From NCBI GenBank assembly GCA_946480445.1, contig CAMLJN010000001.1, positions 113,352 to 153,351 of the forward strand: DNA of 40,000 nt, given 5' to 3'. Below the pieces are notes generated by a model, which was not told the origin of the DNA, did not search any database, and was given only the letters and a program-made list of their open reading frames with translations. Below, in pieces: positions 3,060 to 39,617 of the stretch; positions within the stretch are counted from its first letter, which is position 1; the number at the start of each line of letters is the position of its first letter. Both the position numbers and the translations under genes were made by a program. The DNA is from an uncultured Buttiauxella sp. GTDB taxonomy: Bacteria > Pseudomonadota > Gammaproteobacteria > Enterobacterales > Enterobacteriaceae.

Positions 3060-3656
3060 ATGTCCCCACTTCCCTTTGGCGTAATGAGCGATGTCATCGC
3101 CTTTCTGATGGAGATCGACAAGCTTAAGCAGGTTGAACGACGCACAAAGATTATCGGTAAGGATAGACAGGAAAACTCGGCGGAACATAGCTGGCATTTT
3201 GCCGTGGCGGCCATGAGCCTCGCGCCATTCGCGCCGGCAGAAGTGAATATGTCGCGGGTCGTGCAAATGGCATTGTTGCATGACATCGTTGAAATTGATG
3301 TCGGTGATGTCCTGGTTTACGACCTGGCGGCAAGAGAAGCCGTTGCGCAGAAAGAAGCCCTTGCGGCTGAACGCCTGTTTGGATTATTACCCGAACCTCA
3401 GCGCGGTGATTTTCTTGCTCTCTGGCAGGAGTATGAAGCTGGCGTCAGTGAGGATGCCCGCTTTGCCAGTTCGCTCGATCGTATTTTGCCCATTTTGCAA
3501 AATCTGCATAATGAAGGACAAAGCTGGCGTGAAAATAATATCTCTCTGGAGCAGGTCTTAACCCGCAATGCACGAGCAGGCGAAAGCTGGCCCGAATTAT
3601 GGCAACATGTCGTCAGCCATTTGTATCTTGCGCAGGAAAAGGGCTGGCTGCGCTAA
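3060..3656 (+). CDS. HD-domain phosphohydrolase (YfbR-like 5'-nucleotidase fold)
   Basis: The 198-aa ORF carries H...HD...D metal-binding motifs (ENSAEHSWH, LLHDIVEIDVGD). An AAGGAG Shine-Dalgarno lies 8 nt before the ATG at 3060. Confidence 0.8.
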   Translation: MSPLPFGVMSDVIAFLMEIDKLKQVERRTKIIGKDRQENSAEHSWHFAVAAMSLAPFAPAEVNMSRVVQMALLHDIVEIDVGDVLVYDLAAREAVAQKEALAAERLFGLLPEPQRGDFLALWQEYEAGVSEDARFASSLDRILPILQNLHNEGQSWRENNISLEQVLTRNARAGESWPELWQHVVSHLYLAQEKGWLR

Positions 3657-3698
3657 ACTACTCGCCGGATCACGGCTGAACACTCAGGAAGATGCACG

Positions 3699-4427
3699 AT
3701 GTTTACTCACGCGGCGGTCGCTAATCTCAACGGTCTGGAAATGCAGGTCTACAACTATGTCATTAAAAACCGTGACAAAGTGATGTATATGACCATCCGC
3801 GAGCTGGCTGACGCCGTAGGCGTCTCCACCACCACCGTGCTGCGCTTTTGCCGTAAGCTGAACTGTGAGGGCTACTCTGAATTCCGCGTGCGTTTTAAAT
3901 TATTTCTTGAGCAGAATGATGAGCAGCAGGTTAATTTTGGCCCCAGCGAAATAATCAGTTTTTTCAAAAGCACCAACAATGAAGAATTCGATAATTTAAT
4001 CGACCGTGCCATCGACATTATTTGCGCATCGGAGCGAATTATATTCGTTGGCGCAGGCACCTCTGGAGCGCTGGCTAAATATGGCGCACGTTTCTTTTCC
4101 AACGTCGGTAAATTTAGCAACCATATTGACGATCCCTATTTTCCGGTGACCAGCGATATGGCCAAAAATGCGCTGGCGATTGTGCTTTCCGTTTCAGGGG
4201 AGACGGAAGAGATCCTGCGCTTTGCCAGCCAGTTCAGCCTGCATAACTGCAAGGTGATGTCTGTCACCAGCCATGAGAACTCTTCCCTTGCGAAGCTTGC
4301 AGACTTCAATATCTCCTGGCACATTCCCCTCACCCGCGTAGCGGGCGTCTATGACATCACGACCCAAATCCCCGTTATTTATATTTTAGAAACGATAGGC
4401 CGCAGACTGGCGAAAAAAATGGCGTAA
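3699..4427 (+). CDS. RpiR/MurR-family transcriptional regulator (HTH plus SIS domain)
   Basis: It has an N-terminal HTH (MTIRELADAVGVSTTTVLRFCRKL) and a C-terminal SIS domain (IIFVGAGTSGALAKY). AGGAA lies upstream of the ATG. Confidence 0.85.
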   Translation: MFTHAAVANLNGLEMQVYNYVIKNRDKVMYMTIRELADAVGVSTTTVLRFCRKLNCEGYSEFRVRFKLFLEQNDEQQVNFGPSEIISFFKSTNNEEFDNLIDRAIDIICASERIIFVGAGTSGALAKYGARFFSNVGKFSNHIDDPYFPVTSDMAKNALAIVLSVSGETEEILRFASQFSLHNCKVMSVTSHENSSLAKLADFNISWHIPLTRVAGVYDITTQIPVIYILETIGRRLAKKMA

Positions 4428-18969: not shown

Positions 18970-19154
18970 ATTTCTCTGAGATGTTTGCAAGCGGGCCAGT
19001 CCCCTGAGCCGATATTTCATACCACAAGAATGTGGTGCTCCACCGTCGGTGAGCATGCTCGGTCCGTCCGAGAAGCCTGATGACAGTGACGCTGCATTCA
19101 CCTTGAACCAAGGGTTCAAGGGTTACAGCCTGCGGCGGCATCTCGGAGATTCCC
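18970..19154 (+). ncRNA. ssrS: 6S RNA
   Basis: atttctctgagatgtt.gcaagcgggccagtcccctgagccgatatttcataccacaagaatgtgg ... ggttacagcctgcggcggcatctcggagattccc matches the E. coli 6S RNA sequence I recall, apart from the central variable region. It sits in the conserved zapA-ssrS-fau context. Confidence 0.93.
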
Positions 19155-22008: not shown

Positions 22009-22174
22009 GGTTAGTTGCCTGTGCTGTGAAAACTGACGCGCATTATAAAGCATGCCCGACAGGATTGTCCCCGCGAATGGCTGAACTCATCCGATCTTTG
22101 TGGATTTGGTCTGGATTGGCGGCAAATTTATGTCATAGTGCTTGCACAATAAAAACAGGAGTCAGCAAACGACA

Positions 22175-23074
22175 ATGAAACGCCCGGACTACAGAACACT
22201 ACAGGCGCTGGATGCGGTTATTCGTGAACGAGGATTTGAGCGCGCGGCGCAAAAGCTCTGCATCACTCAATCCGCAGTGTCACAGCGCATTAAGCAACTG
22301 GAAAACATGTTCGGCCAGCCATTGTTAGTTCGCACTGTCCCCCCTCGTCCAACGGAGCAGGGGCAGAAACTGCTGGCTCTGCTTCGCCAGGTGGAGCTGC
22401 TGGAAGAGGAGTGGCTGGGTGATGAACAAATCGGCTCCACGCCGCTGCTGCTGTCGCTGGCGGTGAACGCCGACAGTCTGGCCACTTGGCTGCTGCCTGC
22501 GCTGGCCCCGGTGCTGGCCGACTCCCCTATTCGCCTGAATCTTCAGGTTGAAGACGAAACCCGGACGCAGGAACGCCTGCGTCGTGGCGAAGTGGTGGGA
22601 GCGGTATCTATTCAACCACAGCCGCTGCCCAGCTGCCTCGTCGATCGTTTAGGCGCGCTGGACTATCTTTTTGTGGGATCAAAAGAGTTTGCCGCCCGCT
22701 ATTTTCCGAATGGCGTGACGCGCTCCGCACTGCTGAAAGCCCCCGCCGTGGCCTTCGACCACCTGGACGATATGCATCAGGCTTTTTTGCAGCAGAACTT
22801 TGATTTATCTCCCGGCAGCGTGCCCTGCCATATCGTTAACTCTTCGGAAGCCTTTGTGCAGCTGGCTCGTCAGGGAACAACGTGCTGTATGATCCCGCAC
22901 CTGCAAATCGAAAGAGAGCTCAATAGCGGCGAGCTTATCGACCTGACGCCGGGTCTGATGCAAAGACGTATGCTCTACTGGCACCGGTTTGCGCCGGAAA
23001 GCCGCATGATGCGCAACGTCACGGACGCGCTGCTGGAATATGGACACCGAGTGTTACGCCAGGACGCCGAATAG
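22175..23074 (+). CDS. argP: LysR-family regulator ArgP (IciA)
   Basis: The ATG at 22175 gives [43 protein letters not shown]..., 299 aa. Confidence 0.96.
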
Positions 23075-23075
23075 C

Positions 23076-23106
23076 AAAAAGCCCGCTTTCTAAGCGGGCT
23101 TTTATT
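23076..23106 (+). terminator. argP intrinsic terminator (copy 1 of a duplicated hairpin)
   Basis: caaaa-agcccgctt-tct-aagcgggct-tttt. An A-tract lies upstream and a T-tract downstream, immediately after the argP stop. Confidence 0.8.
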
Positions 23107-23242
23107 GCTAACAAAGAAGGAAAAAGCGTGGTTTTTCCTTCTTTGACGTTAGCTGCCGAAAATCAACAAATTGATTTTCCTTATTTTTTTATTGGGCGAT
23201 CTCTGCTTGTCCTGCATGAAGACAGGGCTCGCCATCAGTCTG
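23104..23242 (+). repeat. MITE-like intergenic unit, copy A (two-hairpin core 23111-23181 plus a less conserved tail)
   Basis: Hairpin 1 is caaagaaggaaaaa-gcgtgg-tttttccttctttg (23112-23145). Hairpin 2 is gaaaatcaa-caaa-ttgattttc (23158-23179). The unit is homologous to the reverse complement of 37452-37593. Confidence 0.7.
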
Positions 23243-23265
23243 AGCCCGCTTAAAAGCGGGCTTTT
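23243..23265 (+). terminator. second copy of the argP-type terminator hairpin
   Basis: agcccgctt-aa-aagcgggct-tttt is identical to 23080-23103 except for the loop. It is oriented for plus-strand termination and has no U-tract on the yggE strand. Confidence 0.6.
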
Positions 23266-23293: not shown

Positions 23294-24025
23294 TTATTGT
23301 GCAGGCTGGCTCTGAGCGCGTTCCAGCTCAAACACCACATCAACCTGGTCGTCGAACTGAATGGTCTGCTGATCGTAGGTATCCTGGGCTGAAACCGGCG
23401 CCGCTGCATCCGCTTTCATCATCCGTACCATCGGGGCTGGCTGGTAGTTAGAAACGTGATAACGCACGCTGTATACCGGGCCCAGCTTGCTGTTAAAGCC
23501 TTCGGCCAACAGTTTTGCCTGACGCATAGCATCGTTGATCGCTTCTTTACGCGCTTTATCTTTGTACTCATCAGGATGAGCAACGCCCAGCGAGACTGAG
23601 CGGATTTCATTCAGACCGGATTTTAACGCCCCATCAAGCAGCTCGTTCATCTTGTCGAGTTTGCGCAGGGTCACTTCAACCTGGCGCACGGCACGATAGC
23701 CTTTCAGCTGCGTTTTGCCGTCTTTCAGGTATTCATACTCTGGCTGAGTACGCAGGTTTGCCGCATTGATGTCTTTCTTCTCAACGCCACTTTGCTGCAG
23801 GAAAGTCAGGTATTGCGCCACGCGATCGTCGGCCTGTTTCTTGGCGGACGCCGCGTCTTTTGCCGAGACGTTAACTTCAATTGCGAGCGTGGCAATATCA
23901 GGAACGGCATCCACGCTGGCTGCGCCGGACGTGACGACGTGTGGGCCGTTTGGCAGCTCGCCTGCCAACGCCGGAACCGAAACAAATCCTACTAAAGCGG
24001 CTAATGCCAGGGTTTTAAACTTCAC
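23294..24025 (-). CDS. yggE: periplasmic SIMPL/DUF541 oxidative-stress defence protein YggE
   Basis: The 243-aa ORF has a GTG start at 24025 with GGAGG 7 nt upstream. It has a signal peptide and is collinear with E. coli YggE (VTSGAASVDAVPDIATLAIEVNV...). Confidence 0.93.
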   Translation of the reverse strand: MKFKTLALAALVGFVSVPALAGELPNGPHVVTSGAASVDAVPDIATLAIEVNVSAKDAASAKKQADDRVAQYLTFLQQSGVEKKDINAANLRTQPEYEYLKDGKTQLKGYRAVRQVEVTLRKLDKMNELLDGALKSGLNEIRSVSLGVAHPDEYKDKARKEAINDAMRQAKLLAEGFNSKLGPVYSVRYHVSNYQPAPMVRMMKADAAAPVSAQDTYDQQTIQFDDQVDVVFELERAQSQPAQ

Positions 24026-37163: not shown

Positions 37164-37284
37164 ATCTCTCCTGCCAGAATCCCTGGAACTTTGTGGCAGA
37201 CAGAGTAATCCAGCCGCCGTCTCAGGGGAATCCTCGCACTCACGAAACTGCAATTGATTGCTTAATTGTCGAACATTTAATCGA

Positions 37285-37298
37285 CTGAAACGCTTCAG
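37285..37298. promoter_or_regulatory. Cra (FruR)-like operator upstream of epd
   Basis: cTGAAACGCTTCAg resembles the near-palindromic Cra consensus TGAAACGTTTCA. E. coli epd-pgk is reported to be under Cra and CRP control. Confidence 0.45.
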
Positions 37299-37423
37299 CT
37301 AGAATAAGCGAAACGGGGAATAAAAGGAATGTTGCCCCGGCACAGGCAACCGATCTTCTGACGTAGGTCACATTTTTTATGGAATAAATGAAACTAAAAA
37401 AGCGGGTGGGATGAATAACGAAC

Positions 37424-37448
37424 AAAAAAAAGGTCGCTTTCGCGACCC
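37424..37448 (-). terminator. strong intrinsic terminator, probably the functional tktA terminator (distal copy of a duplicated hairpin)
   Basis: The minus strand reads ggtcgc-gaaa-gcgacc followed by T8 (A8 at 37424-37431 on the plus strand). Confidence 0.8.
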
Positions 37449-37451
37449 GTT

Positions 37452-37593
37452 CTGAATGATTTTTACTCTGACACAATCTTACGGCACAAATGTCGCCCTG
37501 ATTAATCAGGAAAATCAATTTTTTTGATTTTCGACAGCTCAATCACAATGAAGGAAAAACCACGTTTTTTCCTTCATTGTCTGTAGCATAACG
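37452..37593 (-). repeat. MITE-like intergenic unit, copy B (two-hairpin core 37508-37580)
   Basis: On the minus strand, hairpin 1 is acaatgaaggaaaaa-acgtgg-tttttccttcattgt (37545-37580). Hairpin 2 is gaaaatcaa-aaaaa-ttgattttc (37510-37532). It also has a perfect 14-bp palindrome CCTGATTAATCAGG (37497-37510). Confidence 0.7.
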
Positions 37594-37618
37594 GGTCGCT
37601 TTCGCGACCCGTTATGCT
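37585..37618 (-). other. 15-bp perfect hairpin directly 3' of tktA (proximal copy of the duplicated hairpin; no U-tract)
   Basis: agcataacgggtcgc-tttc-gcgacccgttatgct contains the same 20-mer ggtcgctttcgcgacccgtt found at 37432-37451. Confidence 0.7.
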
Positions 37619-37625
37619 ATGACGA

Positions 37626-39617
37626 TTACAGAATGGCTTTAGCCTGCTTCACCACATTCTCAACGGTGAAACCAAACTCTTCGAACAGCTGCTCGGCAGG
37701 CGCTGACTCACCGAAGGTGGTCATACCCACAACCGCACCGTTCAGGCCAACGTACTTGTACCAGTAGTCAGCGATGCTGGCTTCGATAGCCACGCGAGCG
37801 GCGACGGCTTTCGGCAGCACGGCCTCACGATAGGCAGCGTCCTGCTTGTCGAAGGCGTCGGTAGACGGCATGGAAACCACGCGCGCTTTCACGCCTTCGG
37901 CACTCAGCTTATCCCAGGCCGCCACGGCCAGTTCAACTTCGGAACCGGTCGCGATAAGGATAAGCTCTGGTGTCCCTGCGCAGTCTTTCAGGATATAAGC
38001 GCCACGGGCGATATCCGCCAGCTGCTGCTCAGTACGTTCCTGCTGGGCCAGGTTCTGACGGGAGAAGATCAGCGCGGTTGGGCCGTCCTGACGTTCCACC
38101 GCATATTTCCACGCTACCGCAGACTCAACCTGGTCACATGGACGCCATGTGCTCATGTTAGGCGTTACGCGCAGGGCAGCAAGCTGCTCTACCGGCTGGT
38201 GGGTTGGGCCATCTTCGCCCAGACCGATGGAGTCGTGGGTATAAACCATTACCTGACGCTGTTTCATGAGTGCCGCCATACGCACCGCGTTACGGGCATA
38301 CTCCACGAACATCAGGAACGTCGAGGTGTAAGGCAGGAAGCCGCCGTGCAGCGCGATACCGTTGGCAATCGCGGTCATACCGAACTCGCGCACGCCGTAA
38401 TGGATGTAGTTGCCAGCAACGTCTTCGTTGATTGGCTTAGAGCCGGACCACAGGGTCAGGTTGCTCGGTGCCAGGTCAGCGGAGCCGCCGAGGAATTCAG
38501 GCAGCAGATGACCAAAAGCTTCAATGGTGTTCTGAGAAGCTTTACGGCTGGCAATTTTCGCAGGGTTAGCCTGCAGATTTGCGATGAACGCCTGCGCTTT
38601 CGCAGCGAAATCAGCCGGCATGTCGCCTTTCATACGACGAGTAAATTCTGCCGCTTCCTGCGGGAAAGCTTTAGCGTAAGCCGCGAACTTCTCGTTCCAG
38701 CTAGCTTCTTTCGCCTGGCCTGCTTCACGGGCATCCCACTGCGCATAGATGTCCTGCGGGATTTCGAATGCCGGATGTTTCCAGTCAAGGGCTTCACGGG
38801 TCAGAGCAATCTCTGCATCACCTAACGGTGCACCGTGTGAATCGTGCGTACCGGCTTTGTTTGGTGAACCGAAACCGATGATGGTTTTGCACATCAGCAG
38901 AGAAGGTTTGTCGGTAACGCCTTTAGCTTCTTCAACGGCGCGTTTGATGGCGTCCGCATCGTGACCGTCCACGCCGCGAACAACGTGCCAGCCGTAGGCT
39001 TCAAAGCGCTTAGCGGTATCGTCGGTGAACCAACCTTCAACGTGGCCGTCAATTGAGATGCCGTTGTCATCGTAGAACGCCACCAGTTTGCCCAGCTTCA
39101 GCGTACCGGCAAGGGAACAAACTTCGTGGGAGATGCCTTCCATCATGCAGCCATCACCCATAAAGACGTAGGTGAAGTGGTCGACGATGTCATGACCAGG
39201 ACGGTTGAACTGCGCCGCCATAGTACGTTCAGCAATCGCCATACCTACTGCGTTCGCCACACCCTGACCCAGCGGGCCGGTTGTGGTTTCAACACCGGCG
39301 GTATAACCCACTTCCGGGTGACCTGGGGTTTTGGAATGCAGCTGACGGAAGTTTTTCAGCTCTTCAATCGGCAGATCGTAACCCGTGAGGTGCAGCAGGC
39401 TATAAATCAGCATGGAGCCGTGACCGTTGGACAGGACGAAACGGTCGCGGTCGGCCCAGGATGGATTCTGCGGGTTATGGTTCAGGAAATCACGCCACAG
39501 GACTTCTGCAATATCGGCCATTCCCATTGGGGCACCCGGGTGACCGGATTTGGCTTTTTGTACTGCGTCCATGCTGAGCGCACGAATAGCATTGGCAAGC
39601 TCTTTACGAGAGGACAT
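37626..39617 (-). CDS. tktA: transketolase 1
   Basis: The ATG at 39617 gives [41 protein letters not shown]..., 663 aa as in E. coli TktA. Confidence 0.98.

Follow-up and report, generated by a model that had tools for sequence, protein, structure and literature searches.

The repeat that lies 3' of tktA in this 40,000-nucleotide stretch of DNA from an uncultured Buttiauxella sp. (the window) is an old copy of a non-coding mobile element of about 140 bases that sits on a terminator hairpin. The segment from 37452 to 37589 is very probably a decayed YPAL-type MITE that was moved in trans by an IS1182-family (ISBma2-like) DDE transposase targeting terminator hairpins. Duplication of the terminator hairpin is already known for the YPAL repeats of Yersinia and is common to ISs of the IS1182 family, and a terminator duplicated around a 140-nt insert can be read as ordinary transposon biology.

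Repeat architecture in the window

The sequence-only reading had described a 20-nt repeat, ggtcgctttcgcgacccgtt, on both sides of the insert at 37432-37451 and 37594-37613 with a start-to-start distance of 162 nt, and both copies were found at exactly these positions. Only about 7e-6 exact 20-mer repeats are expected by chance (~8e6 position pairs less than 200 nt apart in 40 kb, multiplied by 4^-20). Comparison with relatives indicated that the original tktA duplication was 24 nt long (AACGGGTCGC....GCGACCCGTT) and that a later loss of about 3 nt from the distal copy limits the exact match to 20 nt. The features of this copy (copy B) and of the second copy near argP (copy A) are collected in Table 1.

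Table 1. Element copies, flanking duplications and associated features (positions in the 40,000-nt window)
Feature	Position	Strand	Remarks
T8 run (A8 on the + strand)	37424..37431	-	U-tract of the original tktA terminator, now after the distal hairpin
Distal target-site duplication copy	37432..37451	.	Originally 24 nt; about 3 nt lost at the A-run side
MITE body, copy B, 138 nt	37452..37589	+	Alignment to the 141-nt family consensus
Hairpin 1, gaaaatcaa-ttttt-ttgattttc	37510..37532	.	Inside copy B
Hairpin 2, subterminal, acaatgaaggaaaaa-ccacgt-tttttccttcattgt	37545..37580	.	Overlaps the right TIR
Proximal target-site duplication copy, 24 nt, aacgggtcgctttcgcgacccgtt	37590..37613	.	tktA terminator hairpin, T-run now separated
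Extended 16-bp hairpin	37584..37619	-	Proximal copy plus outer 6 bp
tktA, transketolase, 663 aa	37626..39617	-	96-97% identity to Buttiauxella TktA; its terminator is the insertion target
MITE body, copy A, 139 nt	23104..23242	-	Orientation inverted relative to copy B
Copy A target-site duplication, argP side, AAAAAGCCCGCTTTCTAAGCGGGCTTTT	23076..23103	.	
Copy A target-site duplication, other side, AGCCCGCTTAAAAGCGGGCTTTT	23243..23265	.	

The T8 run reported after the distal copy on the tktA strand is present as A8 on the + strand. When the two hairpins were scanned for terminators only the distal copy with its T8 was accepted, in agreement with the earlier proposal that this copy is the real terminator. 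At two empty sites (L126 and L127) the same hairpin and then a T-run lie directly after tktA. The tktA-proximal hairpin is perfect and has no T-run on the tktA strand, as described earlier, but its stem is 16 bp with a 4-nt loop and not 15 bp at 37585-37618. In its outer 6 bp, tagcat of the MITE terminus (37584-37589) pairs with atgcta of the tktA flank (37614-37619), and this extension was absent from the relatives compared.

Both terminal inverted repeats (TIRs) of copy B are decayed (left ctgaatgatttttactc, right cattgtctgtagcat), and a TIR scan of the window found no intact TIR in either copy. The tails atcagtctga and atcattcaga, which had been noted to end the two copies in similar ways, are indeed similar and represent the decayed left TIR. 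The palindrome CCTGATTAATCAGG lies at 37497-37510 as reported, and is peculiar to copy B rather than a feature of the family. Hairpin 1 of copy B has a loop 1 nt longer than that of the family consensus and gave no match to the IHF consensus. The sole ORF overlapping copy B (37240-37542, - strand, 100 aa) is a mechanical one without support.

Copy A is neighbored by an argP-like ORF (22142-23074, + strand) and a convergent ORF (23294-24025, - strand). The stems of its flanking hairpins are identical and their loops have diverged. Within the element, positions 23161-23176 fit the IHF consensus on either strand. The spacing of its flanks was measured at 162 nt, the same as at tktA, bearing out the earlier remark that the two loci are spaced nearly alike.

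A MITE family with locus-specific hairpin duplications

More than 120 copies of the element were recovered from at least 14 genera of Enterobacterales. A pattern scan gave at least 118 loci in Mangrovibacter, Scandinavium, Cedecea, Dryocola, Tenebrionibacter, Buttiauxella, Entomohabitans, Intestinirhabdus, Enterobacter, Serratia and Rosenbergiella, and copies from Klebsiella and Providencia were added by blastn. The family consensus is 141 nt (individual copies 138-143 nt), holds no transposase gene and is bounded by TIRs of about 16 nt (CAGACTGATGACAAAC / CAGATTGCTGACAAAG) that are alike at 14 of 16 positions. The interior is AT-rich (38% GC) and contains a 9-bp palindrome matching the IHF consensus and one subterminal hairpin. 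With its short length (below ~400 bp), TIRs, locus-specific duplications and filled and empty orthologous sites, the element has the characteristics of a MITE.

Searches with the window copy and the consensus found no copy in 5,426 E. coli genomes, and the element is therefore not ERIC, REP, RSA or Box C. A phage collection gave no match. Like ERIC/IRU, REP/BIME and Correia elements the present element is small, intergenic, structured and multi-copy, and Correia elements also carry an IHF site. However, ERIC and Correia elements duplicate TA, REPs are the palindrome itself, and ERIC and REP are present in E. coli, where none of the 5,426 genomes held the present element.

A locus-specific direct repeat abutting the TIRs was found in 73 of the 100 evaluable copies, with a length of 18-31 nt (mean 22.4, sd 2.3). 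The duplicated sequence is a GC-rich terminator hairpin with its dyad at the center of the repeat. Among 52 exact duplications the dyad center and the duplication center lay no more than 0.5 nt apart in 34 cases and no more than 2 nt apart in 51. The sequence-only reading had observed at two loci that the flanks match within a locus and differ between loci, and this holds across the same 73 copies; the flanking duplication was reproduced at a spacing of 159-166 nt. No recognizable duplication was found in the remaining 27 evaluable copies, which may be decayed or rearranged. The length of the duplication was weakly related to that of the hairpin (slope 0.28, r 0.41-0.47), and a model of strict cuts at the stem base is not supported.

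Comparison with orthologous sites identified loci with a single hairpin at both ubiK-glgS and tktA. Between ubiK and glgS, where the two flanks are conserved, K. aerogenes has a hairpin-MITE-hairpin arrangement and K. pneumoniae, Salmonella and E. coli have a lone hairpin. The tktA site is filled in the window, L129 and L130/L139, and three Buttiauxella lineages, sp. B2, B. ferragutiae (ATCC 51602) and L136, have an empty site with one terminator hairpin. At the four empty Buttiauxella tktA sites other genes follow downstream, which restricts orthology to the hairpin and the upstream flank, and no empty tktA site adjoining epd was found among the Buttiauxella sites examined. Together these data support the earlier proposal of a mobile unit that duplicates its target terminator, as the hairpins are locus-specific in 73 of 100 copies, empty sites hold a single hairpin and the unit has its own TIRs inside the hairpins.

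These observations also bear on two other origins for the flanking hairpins. They could be the element's own terminal direct repeats, in the manner of an LTR, as the two hairpins match within a locus and all are GC-rich stem-loops of similar size. This is very improbable: the hairpin differs at essentially every locus, the true ends are the inverted repeats inside the hairpins, and the empty orthologous sites with exactly one such hairpin at the same place refute it. It is just as improbable that the structure was left by a site-specific tyrosine or serine recombinase using the hairpin as att core, or is a local duplication from replication slippage. Direct repeats of 15-25 nt are likewise left by integrative elements, and att sites often lie at terminators and tRNA 3' ends, but a recombinase would have had to use more than 70 different cores for one 141-nt element that has inverted-repeat ends and no recombinase gene nearby, and tandem copies (L020, L051 and L089) share a single hairpin between them. 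Slippage cannot explain how one 141-nt sequence came to lie at unrelated loci.

Relationship to YPAL repeats and IS1182-family elements

The termini of the present element (CAGACTGATGACAAACC...CTTTGTCAGCAATCTG) match those of the RU-2/YPAL copy, which starts CAGACTGCTGACAAACC and ends CTTTGTCAATAACCTC (PMC2759123), and the characteristic YPAL termini CAGACTGCTGACAAAC...TTTGTCA are present when the element is compared with that copy. YPAL repeats have been described by De Gregorio et al. 2006 (J Bacteriol 188:7876), Delihas 2007 (PMC2759123) and Delihas 2008 (PMC2229807), and their duplications were reported to be 3-26 bp at dyad symmetries (PMC2229807). In Yersinia YPAL copies we found whole-hairpin duplications of 24 nt and 21 nt. 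Both kinds of element are non-coding, intergenic and multi-copy, with long duplications spanning dyads at gene 3' ends.

The likeness to the YPAL consensus is in the termini and does not extend over the full length. The present element is 138-143 nt long as compared to ~168 nt (about 167-169 bp) for YPAL, and the interiors are unrelated, with the AT-rich interior of the present element differing from that of YPAL, which is described as not A+T-rich. Reciprocal blastn between YPAL and the present family gave no match either way. The hosts also differ; the present element occurs in Enterobacteriaceae, Serratia, Rosenbergiella and Providencia, YPAL in Yersinia, and no Yersinia locus of the present family was recovered. 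A shorter YPAL variant of 130-136 nt, YPAL*, is also on record (PMC2267715). The RU-2 copy resembles one long GC-rich palindrome.

The YPAL terminus is 100% identical over 20-22 nt to the TIRs of elements of 1.52-1.57 kb that encode proteins of 456-487 aa annotated as IS1182 or ISBma2 family transposases. All three of the transposases scanned against Pfam carried DDE_Tnp_1_6 and DUF772. The full-length ISs (L131, L132, L133 and L143-L145) were flanked by hairpin duplications of 18-25 nt and then T-runs in 6/6 cases. The TIRs of the MITE match those of ISBma2-type ISs (CAGACTGCTGACAAACCCC): the left TIR agrees with CAGACTGCTGACAAAC of L131-L133 at 15/16 positions, counted with the variant that has C as its first base, and for the right TIR the agreement with IS1182-family ends is 14/15. 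A subterminal hairpin overlapping the TIR is present at the IS ends and at the right end of the MITE. The ISs code for a transposase whereas the window element encodes nothing, neither DDE_Tnp_1_6 nor DUF772, and it can therefore only be a passive derivative. The sequence-only reading had remarked that a duplication of 20 nt or more would be unusually long for a transposase. This is correct for transposases generally but not for this lineage, and the length is no argument against a transposase because YPAL (3-26 bp) and 6/6 IS1182-family ISs make comparable duplications.

The full-length ISs examined come from Alpha- and Betaproteobacteria and not from Enterobacterales. A transposase with related termini, which had been suggested as a check, was thus found on IS1182-family ISs of other classes and not in the enterobacterial material searched. 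No IS1182-family transposase gene with these TIRs (CAGACTGMTGACAAAC ends) was present in the window or in ~1 Mb of fetched loci. Full-length elements were sought in the 118 loci and in the window as TIR pairs separated by 0.2-4 kb and as palindromic direct repeats separated by 0.3-5 kb, and only chance pairs and tandem MITEs came up. In a plasmid collection MITE copies were found on mislabelled chromosome fragments only, and no IS with a related interior was present. A protein search with the Aminobacter transposase gave Mesorhizobium-type proteins for all of the best 120 matches, which is uninformative on enterobacterial copies. ISCfr1, an IS1182-family element common on enterobacterial plasmids, is not the obvious partner as its ends (CGGCCGATTCTGTTGAAAAAGTAGC) are only loosely similar.

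The lack of an autonomous IS1182-type partner in the MITE-carrying material searched, and the origin of the closest full-length ISs in Alpha- and Betaproteobacteria, would fit a different enzyme moving the MITE, with a convergent or coincidental likeness to IS1182-family ends. We consider this improbable given the identity of the YPAL and IS termini over 20-22 nt, the 15/16 and 14/15 agreement of the MITE TIRs with the IS ends, the same rare hairpin duplication in 6/6 ISs and the subterminal hairpin overlapping the TIR in both MITE and ISs.

IS1272 and TnSha1 (IS1182 family, staphylococci; PMC4923244, PMC5678879) likewise target terminator-type hairpins with little primary-sequence requirement, and as here one hairpin can be targeted repeatedly. 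The outcome differs, as IS1272 is reported to delete part of the hairpin and leave no target duplication (PMC4923244) whereas the present element duplicates the whole hairpin. ISPse1 made a 4-bp repeat on insertion (PMC3281130), and behavior within the IS1182 family is variable because IS1272 and ISPse1 act in these different ways. Unusually long target duplications are shared with the IS1202 family, whose duplications come in fixed sizes (5-6, 16-17 or 27-28 bp) and whose ends begin with TGT (bioRxiv 10.1101/2022.12.17.520857; PMC10132070). Membership of that family was ruled out as the present element has CAGA ends and a continuous range of dyad-centered duplications of 18-31 nt.

We tentatively extend this to a general proposal, that YPAL-type MITEs including the 141-nt enterobacterial family are non-autonomous partners of ISBma2-like transposases with a structure-guided, dyad-symmetric and perhaps cruciform-dependent attack. 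IS1182-family transposases would then be the candidate enzyme class for YPAL mobilization, and one transposon lineage would join three things so far described apart, the YPAL repeats of Yersinia, IS1182 hairpin targeting and the 'terminators' upstream of ISBma2 transposases. The literature searched contained no paper linking YPAL to IS1182 or describing this family; De Gregorio 2006, ISfinder and TnPedia were outside that search and the link may already be on record there. Should this connection prove new, the collection of 70-plus natural insertions would serve as a data set for the target rule.

Proposed insertion mechanism and probable effects on tktA transcripts

In the mechanism that we propose the transposase would select GC-rich, dyad-symmetric terminator hairpins and join the element ends to the two target strands with a stagger of ~18-26 nt, symmetric about the dyad axis. 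Gap repair would then copy the whole hairpin to both sides of the insert. If attack is indeed symmetric about the hairpin dyad, a whole terminator would be duplicated in one step. The staggered-attack chemistry is inferred, the target may be read as a cruciform, and the central IHF-like palindrome may have a role in bending. At tktA the insertion split the terminator, leaving the gene-proximal hairpin without its U-tract and the distal hairpin with T8.

The sequence suggests that the distal hairpin with T8 probably terminates tktA transcripts, and that the element would then lie in a 3'UTR longer by ~160 nt. The tktA mRNA probably reads through the element because the distal hairpin with T8 alone scores as a terminator. 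On the tktA strand the RNA of the copy B region is predicted to fold far better than shuffled sequence (z = -9.6).

This folding could indicate a functional module kept by selection, for instance a 3'UTR stabilizer, a small RNA or a protein-binding site, with mobility secondary or extinct, a reading that is compatible with an origin as a MITE. Conservation within the family points the same way. Pairing in hairpin 2 is kept by compensatory changes among 64 copies (one pair, for example, is CG in 53, AU in 10 and UA in 1), hairpin 1 has a nearly invariant left arm, a part that lies outside the search pattern, and the consensus hairpin 1 (AATCAATTCATTG) fits the IHF consensus on both strands, as do 61/64 copies. 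De Gregorio and colleagues are also said to have found, in 2006, that YPAL-positive transcripts accumulate to higher levels. We nevertheless regard a selected module as unlikely. The search pattern held TTGATTTTC and GGAAAAA..TTTTTCC constant, which by itself accounts for part of the core conservation, and hairpin 2 can be explained as a transposon-end feature because it has a counterpart at the ends of the full-length ISs. Copies of the family adjoin unrelated genes, and copies A and B have decayed ends and variable interiors. No Rfam family was matched by the element; in a scan of the window 6S RNA alone reached the gathering threshold, and a permissive scan of 37350-37680 gave only far sub-threshold matches to eukaryotic and viral hairpins.

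As a mobile element that inserts into terminator hairpins, each copy parts the hairpin of a gene's terminator from the U-tract and lengthens the 3' end by a structured segment. For annotation, this MITE can be recognized in Enterobacterales by two identical terminator hairpins at a distance of ~160 nt. If the link between YPAL and IS1182 is true, these elements would be a natural means of splitting terminators from U-tracts and rewriting 3'UTRs. They could plausibly make close strains differ in the 3' ends and the stability of their mRNAs, one case being tktA in Buttiauxella, which has both filled and empty alleles.

Duplicated terminator hairpins at tktA and single hairpins at orthologous empty sites

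The 20-mer ggtcgctttcgcgacccgtt was present twice in the window, at exactly the positions reported in the sequence-only reading (37432-37451 and 37594-37613). By our own arithmetic, chance alone would yield about 7e-6 exact 20-mer repeats no more than 200 nt apart in 40 kb. The copies flank a non-coding element, referred to here as a MITE. The hairpin proximal to the tktA stop codon was perfect and lacked a T-run on the tktA strand, as had been claimed, but measured 16 bp rather than 15 bp. The distal copy was directly followed by T8 on the tktA strand and was the only one of the two to pass a terminator scan, in agreement with the earlier proposal that it is the real terminator. On the host-gene side the proximal hairpin retained at most 1-3 T and the T-run stayed with the distal hairpin. 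As only the distal hairpin scored as a terminator and four strong hairpins were predicted in the RNA between the two, the tktA transcript likely reads through the MITE into a longer 3'UTR. The duplication was 24 nt at its origin and the distal copy has since been shortened by about 3 nt, resulting in the 20-nt match noticed first. The proximal hairpin also carried a 6-bp stem extension, formed by the tktA flank pairing with a mutated MITE terminus, that was absent in relatives.

The MITE interior occurred only one other time in the window, in copy A, which was flanked by two AGCCCGC...GCGGGCT hairpins with matching stems and different loops. The terminal inverted repeats (TIRs) of both window copies were badly decayed; both are therefore old and probably immobile.

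Features in the window (window numbering)
Feature	Position	Strand or orientation	Remarks
MITE copy A	23104-23242	inverted	same interior as copy B; between convergent genes
MITE copy B	37452-37589		3' of tktA
Proximal hairpin	37584-37619		perfect, 16 bp, beside tktA stop codon; no T-run on tktA strand
tktA	37626-39617	-	
6S RNA (ssrS)	18970-19153	+	Rfam RF00013, 129.6 bits; no connection to MITE

Empty sites were found at two loci, each with one hairpin, as the sequence-only reading had suggested checking. Between ubiK(yqiC) and glgS, K. aerogenes carried hairpin-MITE-hairpin while at that position, within flanks conserved on both sides, K. pneumoniae, Salmonella and E. coli had a single hairpin. 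At tktA a single terminator, AAACGGGTCGC-loop-GCG(G/A)CCCGTTTTT, was present in Buttiauxella sp. B2 and B. ferragutiae (loop TCAG; TktA 96-97% identical to that of the window, which places the window in Buttiauxella) and in a third Buttiauxella locus, L136 (loop TGAT); orthology of the empty Buttiauxella sites covered the upstream flank and hairpin only, as the downstream genes differed (ABC transporter or cmt-like PTS). These empty sites settle that the flanking hairpins are target duplications, and the earlier proposal of a unit that duplicates its target, a terminator, held.

The same tktA site was filled in other Buttiauxella. L129, a metagenomic relative, carried the same MITE family between two 24-nt hairpin copies. 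In another lineage (L130 3226-3350 and L139) an element of about 125 nt with an unrelated interior occupied this terminator, between two copies of the same hairpin. Its ends matched those of the MITE in type (CAGATCGATAACAAAC...CTTTGTCAGCCGTATC), and its subterminal hairpin shared the GCGTGG loop but had compensatory changes in the stem (AACAGCCGAAAA / TTTTCGGCTGTT). More than one insertion has therefore struck the tktA hairpin, and the sequences suggest several MITE subfamilies using one transposase with this terminator as a repeated target. Both window hairpin copies (37590-37613 and 37432-37451) had loop GAAA and stem GCGAC, and both copies in each of L129 and L130 had loop TCAG and stem GCGGC. 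The changes common to both window copies reflect one of two histories: a separate insertion into a hairpin that had already mutated, or homogenisation of the copies by gene conversion. The tktA-epd junction, described as variable in the sequence-only reading, differed in gene content among Buttiauxella lineages, with ABC-transporter genes, cmt-like PTS EIIA/EIIC genes, or epd directly adjacent; all MITE-filled tktA sites seen were of the epd-adjacent type (window, L129 and L130, as compared to L126, L127/L128 and L136).

Distribution and anatomy of the MITE family

A blastn search of a plasmid collection detected MITE copies on chromosome fragments of K. aerogenes and K. pneumoniae, each bracketed by two copies of a different hairpin (ACGGGCCTGAATGGCCCGTTT or GCCCGGTCATGCCGGGCGT). 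A core-pattern scan using one genome per species found at least 118 loci, and the matches listed included Mangrovibacter, Scandinavium, Cedecea, Dryocola, Tenebrionibacter, Buttiauxella, Entomohabitans, Intestinirhabdus, Enterobacter, Serratia and Rosenbergiella. In roughly two of every three matches listed, the longest exact repeat between left and right flanks was palindromic, GC-rich, 15-31 nt long and unique to its locus, and the spacing of 159-166 nt reproduced the roughly 160 nt anticipated from the window alone. Copies with recognisable ends and sufficient flanking sequence were evaluated, scoring direct repeats at up to 10% mismatch. Among the matches listed, 73 of 100 evaluable copies had a TIR-abutting direct repeat of 18-31 nt (mean 22.4 nt, sd 2.3) and 27% had no clear duplication. 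The repeat mostly started with 1-3 A, finished with 1-3 T and often lay between A-rich and T-rich stretches, a setting with the shape of an intrinsic terminator, frequently bidirectional. The duplication first noticed at tktA is real and strongly non-random. One complete K. pneumoniae chromosome contained one MITE copy and none was found in 5,426 E. coli genomes. Outside Enterobacterales, a single core-pattern match was seen on a 7-kb contig of a goat abomasum MAG labelled Candidatus Riflebacteria (L103); it had no flanking hairpin duplication and may stem from contamination during binning or from chance.

Alignment of 68 copies among the matches listed gave a 141-nt consensus, gAGACTGATGACAAACCTCAagCgAaTacAGaaCgaaCAGATGTCACCgAATAAAAAACAAGGAAAATCAATTCATTGATTTTCGGCTGCTAACCACAAAGAAGGAAAAACCACGCTTTTTCCTTCTTTGTCAGCAATCTg, with an interior GC of 38% and ends forming imperfect inverted repeats (left CAGACTGATGACAAAC; right, as reverse complement, CAGATTGCTGACAAAG). 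Hairpin 1, preceded by an A-rich tract, is a 9-bp palindrome, GAAAATCAA-N3-TTGATTTTC (consensus positions 63-85, AATCAATTCATTG). Both of its strands fit the IHF consensus WATCAANNNNTTR in 61 of 64 copies, though its right arm was fixed by the search pattern and its conservation is thus only partly independent evidence. In copy B its loop was 1 nt longer and the IHF consensus was not matched; the whole window held three IHF matches (1.24 expected), two of them in copy A (23161-23176). Hairpin 2 (15 bp) is subterminal and overlaps the right TIR; its outer pairs were free of the search pattern. Its pairing was kept by two-sided changes at three pairs (CG 53 / AU 10 / UA 1; AU 57 / GC 3 / CG 2; AU 56 / GC 6).

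Relationship to YPAL and IS1182-family transposons

The window element was not listed in reviews of bacterial MITEs. The Yersinia palindromic repeats (YPAL/RU-2) are about 168 bp long and duplicate 3-26 bp of their target, at or beside dyad symmetries, according to De Gregorio et al. 2006 as cited by Delihas (PMC2229807). A Y. pestis RU-2 copy starts (tt)CAGACTGCTGACAAACC and ends CTTTGTCAATAACCTC(a) (PMC2759123); the termini are identical in kind to those of the MITE while the interior is unrelated. In YPAL copies that we fetched, the whole hairpin was duplicated, over 24 nt in Y. pseudotuberculosis and over 21 nt on a Y. similis plasmid. A YPAL-like element with a left TIR, AGACTGATGACAAAC, exactly that of the MITE family was detected on E. 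coli, Klebsiella, Citrobacter and Shigella plasmids. Its length is about 164 nt (L142, E. coli plasmid p027_SK3a 71600-71763) and its identity to Y. pestis RU-2 is 75%; a duplicated hairpin of about 19 nt lies on its two sides. Its carriers were mobilisable or conjugative plasmids, which may offer such MITEs a route of horizontal spread.

The YPAL terminus gave 20-22-nt perfect blastn matches on Rhizobium, Aminobacter, Sphingobium and Burkholderia plasmids. These were the TIRs of 1.52-1.57-kb elements encoding proteins of 456-487 aa that carry the annotation IS1182 family or ISBma2 family transposase; the Pfam domains DDE_Tnp_1_6 and DUF772 were present in all three that were scanned. All six full-length ISs with both ends were flanked by 18-25-nt hairpin duplications followed by T-runs (for example AAGGCCGCCGGATTTCGGCGGCCTT), and their subterminal hairpin overlapping the TIR (ACAAACCCC...GGGGTTTGT) has the layout of MITE hairpin 2. 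We concluded that YPAL, the plasmid YPAL-like element and the elements of the window and of L130 probably descend, as non-autonomous forms, from a single transposon lineage, or at the minimum make use of its transposase. No autonomous partner in Enterobacterales was found in the window, about 1 Mb of fetched loci or the plasmid collection. A literature search outside ISfinder, TnPedia and De Gregorio et al. 2006 found no paper printing the MITE core or linking YPAL to IS1182. The window element thus represents a family that is new but of a kind known before: it is a YPAL-type MITE and behaves like the IS1182 family.

The choice of hairpins by IS1182-family members is in line with the literature. 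Palindromic targets have been described for some of them (Siguier et al. 2015, as cited in PMC4923244 and PMC5678879). IS1272 also targets terminator hairpins but deletes part of the hairpin and leaves no duplication (PMC4923244, PMC5678879), unlike the window MITE. ISCfr1 on the E. coli plasmid pDY612-4 (L134; TIRs 516-541 and 2110-2135, CGGCCGATTCTGTTGAAAAAGTAGC) resembled the MITE ends only in a loose CTGnTGAnAAA motif and lacked a hairpin duplication. Branches of the family seem to differ in target behaviour. Terminators just upstream of ISBma2-family transposase genes have been read as intrinsic 5' elements ('mobile attenuators'; Naville and Gautheret 2010, PMC2965389); many of these may instead represent either the subterminal hairpin or a target terminator duplicated on insertion.

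Target geometry and proposed mechanism

The dyad centre and the duplication centre were no more than 0.5 nt apart in 34 of 52 exact duplications and no more than 2 nt apart in 51. Duplication length was weakly correlated with hairpin size (slope 0.28, r 0.41-0.47): around short hairpins the duplication comprised the stem plus a few A/T, and with the longest stems it was shorter than the hairpin. This weak dependence contradicted a cut exactly at the stem base and speaks against a simple cut at a junction. The data were best described by a somewhat flexible, symmetric stagger reaching about 11 nt to either side of the dyad. In the proposed mechanism an IS1182-type DDE transposase would bind both TIRs, and the central IHF-like site may help bend the short element. 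The two ends would be joined one to each strand of the terminator palindrome, at points placed symmetrically about the dyad and separated by about 22 nt, and repair of the two single-stranded gaps would copy the hairpin to both sides. The transposase may recognise its target either as an extruded cruciform, which the symmetry would fit, or as B-DNA.

Tandem arrays of at least two MITE copies were seen in four fetched loci (L020 5613-5950; L044 about 3380-3900; L051 7384-7740; L089 7551-7900). Neighbouring copies had one hairpin in common (hairpin-MITE-hairpin-MITE-hairpin), the arrangement expected if a duplicated hairpin acts as a new target.
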